IMG/VR virus record: IMGVR_UViG_2585427748_000002
DNA: 4,514 nucleotides
Reading direction: 5' to 3' (one strand)
Source: a virus
Taxonomy: Duplodnaviria > Heunggongvirae > Uroviricota > Caudoviricetes
Every line of letters starts with the position of its first letter. The first letter of the stretch is position 1. The notes beneath the pieces are model-generated. The model was not told the DNA's origin. It made no database searches and worked only from the letters and a program-made list of their open reading frames with translations. The translations under genes and the position numbers were made by a program. Positions 167 to 4,514 of the stretch are shown one piece after another.

Positions 167-679
167 TTAACTAATTTTTAGATCCTGGGGTACTCCCGTC
201 TTTTTCATTGCCTCCACGAAAGCGGAACTAACAGAACCTGACCAGTAATACTGGAACCCACTAACAACGCCCTGATAAATCATGGTTTGTGTAGCACCAC
301 CTACGTTTACGGTGATGTTACCTGCTTTACCACCGGCTAAATAAACAGCAGCTGTCGGTGTAGAGTTCGTCAAAAAGTGAGAAAGTGTAACGACAGCCCC
401 TACCAGCCTCCCTGATCCGCAGCTTGCGGCGTTTGTAATTGTACCTTTACTTTTTTCTTCTAAAGGCCAGTCAGCGCCAACTGCGCCCCAGTTATCAACC
501 TTGTCAGAGTATTTCCATTTATAGTACTCAGTTGCAATTTTACAGCCCATAGTTCGCCCAACCATTTGGCTCATCATAAAAGGTTTACTCAGTCCCAGTT
601 TGGTTCCGGCGGCTCCCATCCACTGCTCACCTGTTTCGCTCTTAGCCGAAGAGCCTACCCATCCCGATGTTACCCCCAT
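167..679 (-). CDS. Hypothetical protein of about 170 aa, Gly/Trp/Tyr-rich, no recognisable family; accessory gene downstream of stf in the position lambda uses for tfa
   Basis: The ORF track gives 167-724 with a TTG start, but the first ATG (679-677) is preceded by a strong Shine-Dalgarno GGGGGAG with a 5-nt spacer, so I place the start there. An in-frame stop at 749-751 prevents upstream extension. Stop TAA at 169-167. No signal peptide or transmembrane segment is visible, and there is no resemblance to lambda Tfa. GC content appears somewhat lower than in stf. Confidence 0.6.
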   Translation of the reverse strand: MGVTSGWVGSSAKSETGEQWMGAAGTKLGLSKPFMMSQMVGRTMGCKIATEYYKWKYSDKVDNWGAVGADWPLEEKSKGTITNAASCGSGRLVGAVVTLSHFLTNSTPTAAVYLAGGKAGNITVNVGGATQTMIYQGVVSGFQYYWSGSVSSAFVEAMKKTGVPQDLKIS

Positions 680-701
680 CTCATCTCCCCCTTCTGAATG
701 C

Positions 702-722
702 GTGGGGTGAGTGTCACCCCAC
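702..722 (-). other. Perfect 9-bp inverted repeat (stem-loop or protein-binding palindrome) between stf and the downstream gene
   Basis: Seen in sequence: gtggggtga (702-710), 3-nt loop, tcaccccac (714-722). It sits about 20 nt upstream of the SD of the 170-aa gene and has no following T-tract, so it is not a canonical intrinsic terminator. Confidence 0.4.
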
Positions 723-764
723 AATTTAAATTCAGTAGAAACCAGAAACTACAACAGCTGTCGT

Positions 765-2324
765 TTACTTCTCCCGGAGTTCTTTAATCTCATGACGAAG
801 TGTTTTAAAGCCCTCGACTAACAATGCAATTATGCCGTTGTAGTTAAGACGCAGACGTTTTTCACCAGATATAACGTCTGCGTCTTCAGTTACCAGTTCA
901 GGCAATGCTTTTTGTGCATCCTGAGCAATTAAACCAACCGACGTTTGCCAACCGTCGGCAGAGTACTGTATCTCGTAAAGATAACCAGTAAGTGCCTCCA
1001 GACGATCTAACGCATTATCCAGTTTTACCAGATTTCGCTTGTTGCGTTTATCCGAACGGATCTGAATATCGTTAAATGAGCCGTTTCCGGTCACCGTCAA
1101 ATTGCCATTAATACCACCATTAAAAGTTTGTGCCTGAGTCCATGTATTGGCAGTAGTAAGCAGTTCTGTTCCTTGCCCGGGGGCTCCTGTGTCTCCCTTC
1201 GGTCCCTGTGGCCCCGCCGGACCTGCTGGACCTGCTACTCCCGGATCACCTTTATCGCCTTTCGGCCCCGGCGCCCCTGCCGGACCTGCTGGTCCAGCCA
1301 CTCCCGGATCGCCTTTGTCACCTTTTGGCCCCTGTGCGCCTGCCGGGCCTGCAGCTCCCGTATCTCCCTTTGCCCCCTGTGGACCTGCATTTCCCGTCAG
1401 ACCGGTCTCTCCCCTGTCGCCTTTCGGCCCCTGCGGGCCTGCCGGACCAGCATCACCTGCCGGCCCCCGTTCACCGGTTGCCCCTGCCGGGCCGGTGTCG
1501 CCACGCTCTCCTTTATCTCCCTTCGGCCCCTGAGGACCCGCGGGCCCCGGTTCCCCCTTTGGCCCGGGAGGTCCCACCACGGTGGGGATTCGGTTTACGG
1601 CCTCTTCCGCCGCTATCCTGCTTTGTTCCGCTGACTGTGCGCTTTCTGCTGACTCCCGGGCTTTTTCTGTTGCGGTCGTTGCATCCCTGACTGCATTACC
1701 GGCTGCACTTTCTGCCGTCTTTTTTGACAACTCAGCATCTGTTGCACTTTGTAATGACTCACTGGCTTTTTGAGCGGCCGCAGAGGCCGAGGACGAGGAC
1801 GCCTCCTCTGACTGCTTTGCTGAGGCTGCACTTTCTGCCGCCTGCCGGGCTGACTCCGATGCATCCCCTGCTGAAGTGTCAGCATTTGCAGCGCTCTCTT
1901 CTGCCTGACTGGCTGATATGCCGGCATTCCTCGCTGACGTCTCCGCCTCTCCGGCATTCTTCTTCGCCTCCTCTGCGTTACGCACCACCTCTTCCACCAT
2001 CAGTTCAAAGCGACGCAGTGCCTCCGGACGGGCATCATCCTCCGTCATGGCACCGAGAAAATCATTCAGCGTACCGGGTTGAGAATCTTCATACACGGTG
2101 ATGGTCCCGGCATGTGACGGCGGGAACCCTTCCACCAACAGAATAACGCTGTACTGACCGTACTCAACGTCCATGCTGTAACGCCCGGCTTCATCCGGAT
2201 TTTCTGAGGCCAGCGTGTTCACCACCACCGTGGTGCTGTTACGTTTTGCTTTCAGCTGGATTGTGCAGTTCTGTACCGGTTTTCCTGTGCCGTCTTTCAG
2301 TACACCTGAAATCTTTACTGCCAT
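765..2324 (-). CDS. stf: Side tail fibre protein (lambda Stf-like N-terminal tail-attachment domain, Ala/Ser/Glu-rich linker, collagen-like Gly-X-Y tract, C-terminal intramolecular chaperone / peptidase S74-type auto-cleaving domain)
   Basis: The translation from the ATG at 2324 begins [36 protein letters not shown], matching recalled lambda Stf (orf-401). The ORF-track start at 2330 is a GTG two codons upstream; GGGGTG lies a few nt before the ATG. Track residues about 118-247 are an A/S/E-rich low-complexity region, and about 253-386 are roughly 44 Gly-X-Y triplets ([26 protein letters not shown]...). The C-terminus carries the motif [31 protein letters not shown], which fits the S-D-x-R-x-K auto-proteolysis signature of tail fibre and endosialidase intramolecular chaperone domains. 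Stop TAA at 767-765. Confidence 0.9.
1173..1574 (-). repeat. Collagen-like Gly-X-Y coding repeat tract inside stf, including an imperfect 63-bp tandem duplication at about 1206-1331
   Basis: Seen in sequence: GC-rich triplet periodicity encoding GPxGxxG repeats. The protein segments [21 protein letters not shown] and [21 protein letters not shown] are adjacent 21-aa units, with DNA copies at about 1269-1331 and 1206-1268 that are similar but not identical. The lack of stops here in several frames on both strands explains the stacked ORF-track hits. Confidence 0.75.
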
Positions 2325-2388: not shown

Positions 2389-2988
2389 TCAGAACTTATA
2401 ACCGACACCCACGATGAAACCGTCAGTGCGCCAGTCGCCACTGCCGGAACCTTCATAAGCAAGGTCAATGGTCACGGATTCGGTCGGGTTAAACTGCACG
2501 CCAGCCCCCCACGCCAGAGACGTGTTGCTGTGGCGACCGTCATCACTTCCGGTCAGCACATCGTGCGTTTTCCCCTTGTTGTCAGTTACGCGGAGATAAT
2601 CCCCGGAGAAAGTCGACACACGGCTGTAAGCCACACCCACCATCGCATACGCGCTGAACCATTCATTCACGCGTACAGACGGCCCCACCATCACGCTGAA
2701 CCAGCGGTTACGCACGGAATCTTCATGCCAGCGGGTATCGCTGTAGTGCGTTTTTTGCTCATCCTCAGCATTGGCATAACTGAAGGACGTAATCAGCCCC
2801 AGCGCGTCCGTAAACTCATAACGGTATTTCACGTTAATCCCGTTCAGATTATCGCTGCCGGGAACGTTCGTCGAGGCATGGAGATACCCCGCGCTCAGCG
2901 TGGACTGATGTTCTGCTGCACTCGCTGGCGTAGCAGCGGCGACCTGCCAGACTACTGCGGACAAAATAACAGCACAAACTTTACGCAT
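2389..2988 (-). CDS. lom: Lom outer membrane protein (Ail/Lom/PagC/Rck family 8-strand beta-barrel); lysogenic-conversion-type cargo gene
   Basis: The 199-aa translation has an N-terminal signal peptide (MRKVCAVILSAVVWQVAAATPASA|AEHQ), the Lom-like stretch STLSAGYLHASTNVPGSDNLNGINVKYRYEFTD...RWHEDSVRNRWFSVMVGPSVRVNEWFSAYAM...GSGSGDWRTDGFIVGVGYKF, and a C-terminal aromatic F typical of outer membrane beta-barrels. SD-like GAGG sits 6 nt upstream of the ATG. The gene lies between J-like sequence and stf, as in lambda. Confidence 0.93.
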   Translation of the reverse strand: MRKVCAVILSAVVWQVAAATPASAAEHQSTLSAGYLHASTNVPGSDNLNGINVKYRYEFTDALGLITSFSYANAEDEQKTHYSDTRWHEDSVRNRWFSVMVGPSVRVNEWFSAYAMVGVAYSRVSTFSGDYLRVTDNKGKTHDVLTGSDDGRHSNTSLAWGAGVQFNPTESVTIDLAYEGSGSGDWRTDGFIVGVGYKF

Positions 2989-3012
2989 AATTACCTCTCG
3001 CTTTTCTGCAAT

Positions 3013-3036
3013 AAAAAAGGCGCCATTTCTGGCGCC
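3013..3036 (-). terminator. Rho-independent terminator candidate downstream of the Nu1::J ORF (tJ-like)
   Basis: Seen in sequence: the palindrome ggcgcc (3019-3024), a 6-nt loop, then ggcgcc (3031-3036) forms a GC stem, followed on the minus strand by a run of six T (plus-strand A at 3013-3018). It lies between the ORF stop (3056) and the lom start (2988). Confidence 0.6.
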
Positions 3037-3055
3037 CGTATATGGGTTATAAAAT

Positions 3056-4219
3056 TCAGCTGATACTGATGCCTGCGGTGGCTTTCTTCATCACCACAAC
3101 CAGCAAATCGCTGATACTTGCTGTGGGATACCAGTTATTCACCAGCCATGCTGATACCGAAAACTCCAGCGTCATGTGACCGTGACCGGCAGGCATATCA
3201 ATAACGCCACTGTAAATCAGCGTATTATCCAGCGCGGTACGGTTATAAATTTCAGCACCGTTTTTCCGCACTATCAGACGGCATGAGGAGTAAATATCAG
3301 TATGCTCTCTCTCATGCTTAGCGCCGCTGAATGCCACCGCCGGAATAACAATTTGCCGGTCAAAAGGCTGATCGTCATAAATCCTGACGGTAACGGTCCC
3401 TGATGGCCACCGCTCCGGTGCCCGGGAGTCCCGCGGAAAAGCCTTACCCACTGTTTTAACGAGATCGCCTTCAATCTGGTTCGCGGACAGTTTTCCCAGA
3501 ACCCGACAGTTCTCGTTAATCGTGACGTTGTTGAGCGTCCCGGAATTCGCATTCACGTTACCGCTGATATCAGCATTTCTTGCGGTCAGCCTGCCCTCCG
3601 GCGTCAGGGAAAACGTCGGGGGATTGCCGGACGAGGTGATACTCACCGCAAACAGCCGCTTCAGGAACACATCGTTCATGAACAACTGATTCCCCTGCGC
3701 CACAAATAACGGCGTGGTGTTGCCGTCCTCCGGGTTAATCATCGCAATACGGTCAGCCAGCAGCAGTATGTTGCTCAGGGGCTGGCCATCAGTATCCTCA
3801 AAACGCCGCTGCACCGACAGGGGGATCCCGTCGAGAATACTGGCAATTTCACCTGCGATCCGCGACAGCACGAAAGTACAGAATGCGGTTTCCACCACTT
3901 CAGCTGAGTCTCTGGCATTCTTCAGTTCCTGTGCGTCGGCCTGCGCACGCGTAAGTCGATGGCGTTCGTACTCAATAGTCCCTGGCTGGAGATCTGTCTC
4001 GCTGGCCTGCCGCAGTTCTTCAACTTCCCGGCGCAGCTTTTCGTTCTCAATTTCAGCATCCCTTTCGGCATACCATTTTATGACGGCGGCAGAATCATAA
4101 AGCACCTCATTACCCTTGCCACCGCCTCGCAGAACGGGCATTCCCTGTTCCTGCCAGTTCTGAATGGTACGGATACTCGCACCGAAAATGTCAGCCAGCT
4201 GCTTTTTGTTGACTTCCAT
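3056..4219 (-). CDS. Chimeric ORF: terminase small subunit Nu1 N-terminal 140 aa (winged-HTH DNA-binding and self-association region) fused in frame to a ~247-aa J-like host-specificity C-terminal receptor-binding domain; probable deletion remnant
   Basis: Translation starts [39 protein letters not shown] and stays Nu1-like through ...[13 protein letters not shown] (codon 140, plus-strand 3800-3802), matching recalled lambda Nu1. After that it diverges from Nu1 (lambda continues PELENRHVDF) into [27 protein letters not shown]...[34 protein letters not shown]. That tail ends 67 bp upstream of lom with a terminator in between, which is where the 3-prime end of J sits in lambda. ATG at 4219-4217, stop TGA at 3058-3056. 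Assignment of the C-terminal part to J rests on position and recalled similarity, not a search. Confidence 0.8.
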
Positions 4220-4240
4220 TGTTCATTCCACGGACAAAAA

Positions 4241-4408
4241 CAGAGAAAGGAAACGACAAAGGCCAAAAAGCCCGCTTTCAGCACCTGTCGTTTCCTTTCT
4301 TTTCAGGGGGTATTTTAAATAAAAACATTAAGTTACGACGAAGAAGAACGGAAACACCTTAAACCGGAAAATTTTCATAAATAGCGAAAACCCGCGAGGT
4401 CGCCGCCC
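4241..4408 (-). promoter_or_regulatory. cos: lambda-type cos site: cosN cohesive-end sequence plus cosB (Nu1-binding R1, R2, R3 elements and an AT-rich IHF-type site)
   Basis: Seen in sequence: plus-strand 4397-4408 aggtcgccgccc is the reverse complement of GGGCGGCGACCT, the lambda 12-nt cohesive end. Three copies of the cgtttcc(t/g)ttct motif lie at about 4244-4255 (R1, reverse orientation on plus strand), 4289-4306 (R2) and 4340-4355 (R3), with an AT-rich stretch at 4307-4335 between R2 and R3. Spacing from cosN to the Nu1 ATG at 4219 is about 190 bp, as in lambda. Positions 4409-4514 match the recalled non-coding right end of lambda (the cosQ side). Recognition is from memory of the lambda sequence. 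Confidence 0.85.
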
Positions 4409-4514
4409 CGTAACCTGTCGGATCACCGGAAAGGACCCGTAAAGTGATAATGATTATCATCTACATATCACAACGTGCGTGGAGGCCATCAAACCACGTC
4501 AAATAATCAATTAT

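Follow-up and report, generated by a model that had tools for sequence, protein, structure and literature searches.

A truncated nu1 joined in frame to the end of J beside a lambda-type cos site in an Escherichia coli prophage remnant

When a phage-derived sequence retains a cos site and the DNA-binding part of the small terminase subunit next to it, is it still doing something or is it only debris? This question is raised by a locus in which the lambda nu1 gene breaks off and continues as another gene. The initial annotation proposed two answers – that the truncated product acts as a packaging decoy against lambdoid phages, or that the cos site allows a helper phage to mobilise the defective element. 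Our analysis points to a simpler one. We read the locus, with a probability of about 0.78, as the scar of one illegitimate-recombination deletion in a decaying lambda-like prophage of Escherichia coli, with a by-product open reading frame (ORF) and a cos site that is a passive leftover. It looks like ordinary prophage decay rather than a device for defence or mobilisation.

The window – the whole stretch of DNA that was analysed, 4,514 bp – is the complete contig JORO01000079.1, reversed, from E. coli assembly GCA_000713235.1. Its minus strand carries every gene. Read from position 4514 down, the order is a lambda-right-end equivalent with cosQ, then cosN, cosB, a 387-aa ORF, a hairpin, lom, the side tail fibre gene (stf) and a gp38-like gene (Table 1).

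A lambda-type cos site and a chimeric reading frame

In the alignment to the lambda genome (NC_001416), minus-strand window position 4408 corresponds to lambda bp 1, where the cohesive end begins. From 4408 to 3800 the window corresponds to lambda bp 1 to nu1 codon 140 with 98–99% identity; the match takes in cosB and then nu1 as far as ...CAGCGGCGTTTT at window 3800, where it ends. At ~98% DNA identity over ~610 bp, the match is far above chance. The region 3800–4408 singled out by the initial annotation thus proved exact at both ends.

All parts of a lambda-type cos are present: cosQ, cosN and a cosB with R3, I1, R2 and R1 at lambda spacing. The placement of cosQ relative to cosN is as in the lambda right end, where we take cosQ to occupy lambda coordinates 48473–48479. 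An earlier description of cosN and R1–R3 as intact was slightly generous; it holds for cosN and R2, which are unchanged, while R3 and R1 each carry one change. With the limits of R3 taken from PMC9026076, its change at bp 53 lies outside the TerS contact segment (bp 55–63), and the same variant is found in phages 2H10 and PhiR70_1 and in Qin. The other differences from lambda in cosB are at bp 73, at bp 102 and in a 1-bp deletion near bp 137, between R2 and R1. Since every difference from lambda in this cos recurs in the deposited complete phage genomes 2H10 and PhiR70_1, as well as in Qin-type prophages, the site is very probably competent. Judged from its sequence, it would very probably still be recognisable by a lambda-type terminase given in trans.

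Table 1. Features of the 4,514-bp window, from the cosQ side to the tail-fibre genes.
Feature	Position	Strand	Remarks
Lambda-right-end-equivalent sequence, 5' of cosN	4409..4514	-	Holds cosQ; same as Qin-type prophage
cosQ GGGTCCT, packaging-termination element	4432..4438	-	Same as lambda
cosN, 12-base cohesive end GGGCGGCGACCT	4397..4408	-	Same as lambda bp 1-12
cosB R3 (lambda bp 50-65), AGGTGTTTCCGTTCTT	4344..4359	-	One change, bp 53 C>T
cosB R2, inverted (lambda bp 109-124)	4285..4300	-	No change relative to lambda
cosB R1 (lambda bp 151-166), TTGTCGTTTCCTTTCT	4244..4259	-	First base altered, bp 151 C>T
Chimeric 387-aa ORF	4219-3056	-	Nu1 1-140 + J 911-1157
nu1' codons 1-140, lambda-type small terminase	3800..4219	-	wHTH DNA-binding domain and central region; without TerL-binding C-terminus
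Deletion junction, nu1 ...GCGTTTT / GAGGATACTG... J	3799..3802	-	Only TT common to both parents
'J, last 247 codons and stop, in frame with nu1'	3056..3799	-	Tail-tip fibre and C-terminal receptor-binding domains
Terminator-like hairpin and T-run, between chimeric ORF and lom	3018..3037	-	Predicted, consensus match only
lom, Ail/Lom outer-membrane protein, 199 aa	2389..2988	-	
Side tail fibre gene (stf), 519-521 aa	765..2330	-	Collagen-like Gly-X-Y repeats
gp38-like tail-fibre adhesin/assembly gene	167..724	-	Called as 170 aa, Gp38_N

The 387-aa ORF downstream of cos is a chimera of two lambda proteins. Pfam assigns Phage_Nu1 to residues 1–143, Phage_Tail_Tip to residues 141–228 and Ig_GpJ_C to residues 257–387; the Phage_Nu1 match (PF07471, E 3e-87) leaves profile positions 144–164 unmatched. 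Among structures in the PDB, the Nu1 DNA-binding domain (1J9I) matches chimera residues 1–68 with an E value of 6e-39, and further matches are to TerS 1–98 (6HN7) and to residues 882–1131 of lambda J (8IYK). The TerS dimerisation surface is retained, as judged from the PDB match. At the residue level, 138 of the 140 Nu1-derived positions are the same as in lambda Nu1, and the 41-residue C-terminus (Nu1 residues 141–181) is replaced by J. Pfam, PDB and alignment therefore bear out the original description of the Nu1 module, in which the wHTH is kept and the gpA-binding C-terminus is lost; the central region is kept as well.

The last 30–40 residues of TerS are protease-sensitive and required for TerL binding (PMC9026076). 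With that segment gone, the chimeric product is expected to be unable to build terminase. The gene for the large-terminase partner (A) is absent directly downstream, where lom and stf come next, and falls inside the deletion described below. NCBI labels the chimera either 'terminase small subunit' or 'DUF1983 domain-containing protein', and both labels call for a warning, as the protein can work neither as a subunit of terminase nor as a tail-tip protein.

Origin and distribution of the junction

The nearest relative of the J'-lom-stf-tfa part of the window (98.5%) is a lambda-like prophage in strain 23CRST047, which is apparently intact, ~46.7 kb long and located between potB and potC. The 'J part is 99.7% identical to nt 2729–3474 of the J gene of this strain. 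Compared with the 23CRST047 prophage, the window is without L013 2024–20002, or 17,979 bp, comprising the end of nu1, A, all head and tail genes and J codons 1–910. Longer carrier contigs have Rz and Rz1 upstream of the chimeric ORF in the same orientation, and the gene order of carriers – Rz/Rz1, a 46-aa gene, YnfO(-), cos, chimera, lom, stf – is that of the intact 23CRST047 prophage. At the join itself the parents share only TT, which argues for illegitimate recombination rather than a homology-driven or site-specific event; besides the shared TT, an imperfect AGCGG lies near the join. The reading frame is kept across the join, for which the chance expectation is 1 in 3.

The junction is real but rare. 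An exact search for the junction 22-mer returned 0 matches in GTDB representative genomes, IMG/VR and JGI metagenome contigs, and megablast of the window against 5,426 complete E. coli genomes and 50,697 phage records never spanned it; the matches of the whole window all end at window 3801. The exact protein is present on 12 contigs of 3–5 kb (~18 samples), which come from NCBI draft assemblies and two ENA metagenomes, and strain 2-011-08_S3_C3 has a partial copy of the chimera.

One rival explanation is that short-read assemblers made a chimeric nu1-J contig at a prophage repeat. Every carrier is a short contig from a short-read assembly, and the first 588 window bases are the same as Qin nohA, which the strain probably also carries. 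Yet the same junction recurs across the 12 contigs, which come from different submitters and assemblers and include the two metagenomes; the 2 bp that the parents have in common at the join are far below any assembly k-mer; and SNPs specific to the chimera sit just upstream of the junction. Because the same protein occurs on 12 contigs and its parents share only 2 bp, the junction is no one-off assembly error, and we reject an assembly chimera as its source, giving that explanation next to no weight. It stays a caveat for which cos haplotype is attached, since the identity of the first 588 bases to Qin nohA means that the haplotype joined to the junction could be a repeat-resolution choice.

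The carriers themselves vary in an uneven way. A complete cos precedes the chimera in all of them. At least four haplotypes exist for their first 433 bases, a stretch that takes in the cosQ side, cosN, cosB and 46 initial codons; differences number 11–31 around cos as against 0–1 in the remaining ~4 kb. From base 434 of the reverse-complemented window on, junction included, the carriers are the same except for one SNP. The haplotype of the window equals Qin for 588 bases and then has chimera-specific SNPs. One metagenome carrier contig has a different cosN core. Changes among carriers are synonymous only, with no amino-acid change; they sit in the part exchanged with functional phages, and downstream of the junction the carriers are nearly clonal. 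Either homologous exchange with co-resident lambdoid prophages or repeat resolution by assemblers fits the cos-proximal mosaic. In recombination between lambda and DLP12, half of the junctions adjoin cos (De Paepe et al., PMC3945230).

These observations can be assembled into a putative history. A single deletion of 17,979 bp would have joined nu1 codon 140 to J codon 911, in frame by chance, and the 387-aa ORF would be its by-product, transcribed only within the Q-dependent late transcript. The cos left behind most probably has a passive effect today, as a substrate that the terminase of a co-resident or infecting lambda-type phage would cut in place. Packaging would then start toward J'-lom-stf-tfa and could not finish without a second cos. 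The break at cos may stimulate homologous exchange with other lambdoid phages and make the site a recombination hot spot, and a ~430-bp mosaic around cos with identical sequence downstream would follow from such exchange.

Scars joining nu1 to J, in frame or not, are common among old cryptic prophages, Qin being one of them. A protein search, which detects in-frame fusions only, identified >15 further E. coli clusters with Phage_Nu1 and the J C-terminus fused in a single ORF of 362–670 aa. The grounded prophages that hold these in-frame scars (P0002–P0019) occupy the Qin locus (P0002, P0010) or the lambda att locus (P0004, P0016), or combine the two in rearranged form. Spot checks revealed out-of-frame scars in FORC064 Qin, E. 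coli C (DLP12-type locus) and ZYB62 (Qin locus), the latter two of which PGAP calls pseudogenes. Qin nohA is a nu1::J scar too, consisting of Nu1 1–169 followed by out-of-frame J sequence, with a junction that is present in 52 complete genomes. Orphan Nu1 remnants beside cos are near-universal in E. coli cryptic prophages.

Many of these scars share a nu1-side breakpoint. A nu1-side end at nt 507 (CTGATA/) is common to eleven in-frame fusion clusters and Qin nohA, another at nt 395 (GACGGGAT/) is common to four in-frame clusters, and in both cases the J-side ends vary. The J-side ends of the longer alleles come directly after GATAAC, GATA or GATTAC. To judge by these motifs, the nt 507/395 series would fit deletion between 4–6-bp direct repeats, and its members are possibly secondary deletions from an ancestral junction. 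The window junction (nt 420, TT) is outside both series and is a separate single event.

Decoy, mobilisation and decay as readings of the locus

A scan for sigma-70-like promoters found none above chance upstream of the ATG and a single internal site, at chance frequency. The homologous region upstream of K-12 nohA/nohB showed low activity as a lacZ fusion (PMC1802558), and the FNR site described in that work falls ~33 bp past the window end. Since Rz/Rz1 lie upstream in the same orientation, the ORF stands where nu1 normally does in the Q-dependent late transcript.

As a decoy, which is mechanistically conceivable, Nu1(1–140)-J' would bind the R elements of cosB, or heterodimerise via its DNA-binding domain with incoming TerS, and, unable to recruit TerL, poison the packaging of superinfecting or induced lambda-cos phages. 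The chimera has a suitable anatomy, having lost the TerL-binding tail but neither the DNA-binding domain nor the central region, and its amino-acid sequence does not change among carriers. Interference directed at TerS also has a precedent: the DNA-binding domain is where lambda TerS dimerises, and Rpp, a PICI protein, occupies that very surface and so blocks lambda (PMC6739421). Our literature search on dominant-negative small terminase in lambda yielded nothing beyond Rpp-type proteins, and that on gpNu1 truncation biochemistry nothing usable beyond reviews. The expression context argues the other way. The ORF is without an independent promoter. Its product would come late only, when the phage makes its own Nu1, and a single chromosomal copy would have to compete with nu1 on many replicating phage genomes. 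Moreover, the terminase protomer is TerS2:TerL1 (PMC9026076), so a mixed dimer may still recruit TerL. The junction is very rare, and its sister scars are often frameshifted or annotated as pseudogenes. With no promoter of its own, a late operon position, a rare junction and sister scars that are often out of frame, we consider the proposed decoy highly improbable. A broader version, in which truncated Nu1, with or without a J tail, would be made upon late transcription of a lambda-cos phage and act as a dominant negative or cosB blocker – such that the orphan Nu1 of cryptic prophages would be kept as an anti-lambdoid defence – strikes us as a distinct long shot. If truncated TerS did hinder lambdoid packaging, the widespread nohA/nohD-type genes would gain a function; nothing here points so.

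Under helper mobilisation, a co-resident or infecting lambda-cos phage would supply terminase and virion proteins, by which this cos is cut and the defective element, or DNA next to it, is packaged into transducing particles. It is a reasonable idea, given a cos that is probably competent, with cosQ, cosN and cosB complete and a haplotype common to viable phages; the cos and nu1 of the cryptic prophage DLP12 work in lambda (PMC3945230), and the O157 Sakai prophage Sp4, whose nu1 is disrupted, is most likely packaged by the Sp14 terminase via a near-identical cos (PMC2669165). With the Sp4 precedent published, it is not a new one, and even if true it would be an already-known phenomenon. The obstacles lie in what surrounds the site. 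Terminases of the cos type depend on another cos for the terminal cut (PMC6687093), and only a single cos is visible on the 4.5-kb contig. Subtracting the deletion from the intact relative of ~46.7 kb leaves ~28.7 kb. Lambda packages DNA of roughly 38–51 kb; a monomer of such an element falls below these limits and a dimer above them. P0016, another element with a scar of this sort, is a remnant of ~15 kb and has no replication or immunity genes. Taken together, mobilisation appears unlikely. We also considered a PICI or other satellite and rejected it: no rpp-like or replication gene was found in the window or in the ≤2 kb upstream on carriers, no satellite gene is visible, and the cos has the helper's own type of sequence rather than a different one. 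A PICI is expected to bring an integrase, a replication module, a TerS-redirecting Rpp and a cos of another sequence.

Of the functional interpretation first placed on this locus, the anatomy – a truncated Nu1 with cos upstream – stands, and the decoy and mobilisation consequences drawn from it find no support. We therefore favour decay by deletion. Against this reading stand the preserved frame of the fusion and the lack of amino-acid change among carriers, and the kept cos, Nu1 DNA-binding domain and J receptor-binding domain could reflect undetected selection. As a case of lambdoid decay, the locus illustrates the loss of the morphogenesis block; what stays behind is cos, the beginning of nu1 and a host-range set, J'-lom-stf-tfa. 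Remnants of this kind probably serve infecting phages as a store of cos-proximal and host-range sequence with which to recombine. The locus also illustrates that short-read contigs ending in prophage repeats cannot carry claims about mobility.

Comparison with known packaging systems and remnants

The published model of helper-dependent use of a cos is Sakai Sp4, in which nu1 is broken by an IS and cos is near-identical to the one in a co-resident phage (Asadulghani et al. 2009, PMC2669165). Both are lambdoid prophages without a working terminase of their own. They differ in that the Sp4 genome is for the most part still there and a neighbouring prophage amplifies it, whereas here all head and tail genes are deleted.

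The nearest demonstrated mechanism to the proposed decoy is that of Rpp, a wHTH protein of Gram-negative cos-PICIs that sits on the TerS dimerisation surface and blocks lambda packaging (Fillol-Salom et al. 2019, PMC6739421). A dedicated satellite gene, which is expressed, encodes Rpp, and Rpp redirects terminase to a different cos. The chimera, unlike Rpp, is a truncated TerS with unchanged DNA specificity and no promoter of its own, and there are no satellite genes in view.

Laboratory truncations of TerS cover the same residues as the chimera: TerS 1–98 (6HN7), the DNA-binding domain 1–68 (1J9I) and gpNu1 cut at Pro141. The last of these is the deltaP141 gpNu1 construct that Yang and colleagues reportedly made in 1999. 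The natural break after residue 140 coincides with the boundary between self-association and gpA-binding regions used in laboratory constructs, though these are isolated fragments and the chimera has 247 J residues attached.

The closest likeness is to Qin nohA. The cos-nu1 segment of the window is 99.6% identical to it, exactly so over the first 588 bases; neither has a large terminase gene after the nu1 part, and Qin nohA has tail-fibre remnants downstream. The two differ in breakpoint (nu1 nt 420 in the window, nt 507 in Qin), and the window has an in-frame join and retains the entire J C-terminus, lom and a complete stf. The upstream genes of carriers (Rz, 46 aa and a 61-aa YnfO-like gene) resemble the potB/potC prophage of 23CRST047, not Qin. 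We therefore reject the notion that the locus is simply Qin nohA, given its other breakpoint, its chimera-specific SNPs, its non-Qin upstream genes and the out-of-frame join in Qin. It does fit the type of grounded-prophage remnant to which Qin nohA and DLP12 nohD belong – a cos and a nu1 homologue without terL, lying between upstream lysis genes and downstream tail-fibre genes, with sequence deleted that an intact relative has.

Recurrent nu1::J scars and their breakpoints

Grounded lambdoid prophages of E. coli carry repeated nu1::J deletion scars at Qin, DLP12-type and lambda att loci. Among the in-frame fusions, the only ones that our search could detect, the breakpoint in nu1 falls chiefly at two sites: nt 507, directly after CTGATA, is the end in 11 protein clusters, and nt 395, directly after GACGGGAT, is the end in four. 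Qin nohA, whose join is out of frame, also has its nu1-side end at nt 507. The J-side ends vary and are preceded by GATAAC, GATA or GATTAC. This pattern of a fixed nu1-side end combined with variable J-side ends resembles the outcome of nested deletions in which short direct repeats recombined.

We also observed that a single base change from the lambda GGGCTC to GGGATC in the window (Leu132Ile) creates a GATC/BamHI site. The site lies at the exact nu1 position (nt 395) of the breakpoint in the four other fusion clusters.

One scar-bearing prophage remnant (P0016) is found in two chromosomal settings. Its left flank is that of lambda att (ybhC, int) in both L019 and L020, whereas its right flank is either that of lambda att (ybhB-bioA) or that of Qin (pinQ-ydfK-ydfJ). 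The two alternative right flanks imply that, in some strains, the chromosome has been rearranged between two prophage remnants.

Coordinates of features in the window and related loci
Feature	Location	Details
Collagen-like Gly-X-Y region, long, in stf	window 1150-1560	minus strand
63-bp tandem repeat in stf Gly-X-Y region	window 1211-1352	2.3 copies; TRF array
Gained GATC/BamHI site	window 3823-3828	
Variable cos-proximal segment of carriers	window 4082-4514	compared with L002-L011
FNR-binding site TTGATGCAGATCAA	L012 (Qin-type locus) 8968-8981	~33 bp past window position 4514
nu1::J scars	L012 9296-10101; L019-L027	proteins P0002-P0019
Divergent cohesive-end core	L011 1438-1460	metagenome contig k141_4412

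Variation around cos among carriers

Contigs that share the window's junction differ at 11-31 positions in the ~430 bp around cos – a segment covering cosQ, cosN, cosB and nu1 codons 1-46 – and the following ~4 kb holds 0-1 differences among these carriers. Either a recombination hot spot lies near cos, or the segment is a repeat common to other prophages that assemblers resolved differently. Within cosB, the majority haplotype (L002 and six further contigs) has an A>G change in the conserved R2 core at lambda bp 118, so that the R2 strand reads CGCTTCC instead of CGTTTCC; this change is absent from the haplotype of the window.

One carrier, L011, has the cohesive-end core GGGCGGAAGGCG instead of GGGCGGCGACCT. 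Its sequence upstream of cosN is unrelated and the nu1::J chimera downstream is unchanged. The contig could have arisen by recombination with a phage that carries another type of cos, or it could itself be a metagenomic chimera.

An FNR-binding site has been described 5' of K-12 nohA/nohB (PMC1802558). We found it retained in Qin-type and several other loci; carrier contigs L002-L011 contain no exact match.

The side tail fibre gene

The stf gene, with its collagen-like repeats, is a single intact ORF of 519-521 amino acids in the window, whereas its counterpart in the closest complete genome is annotated as split or as a pseudogene.
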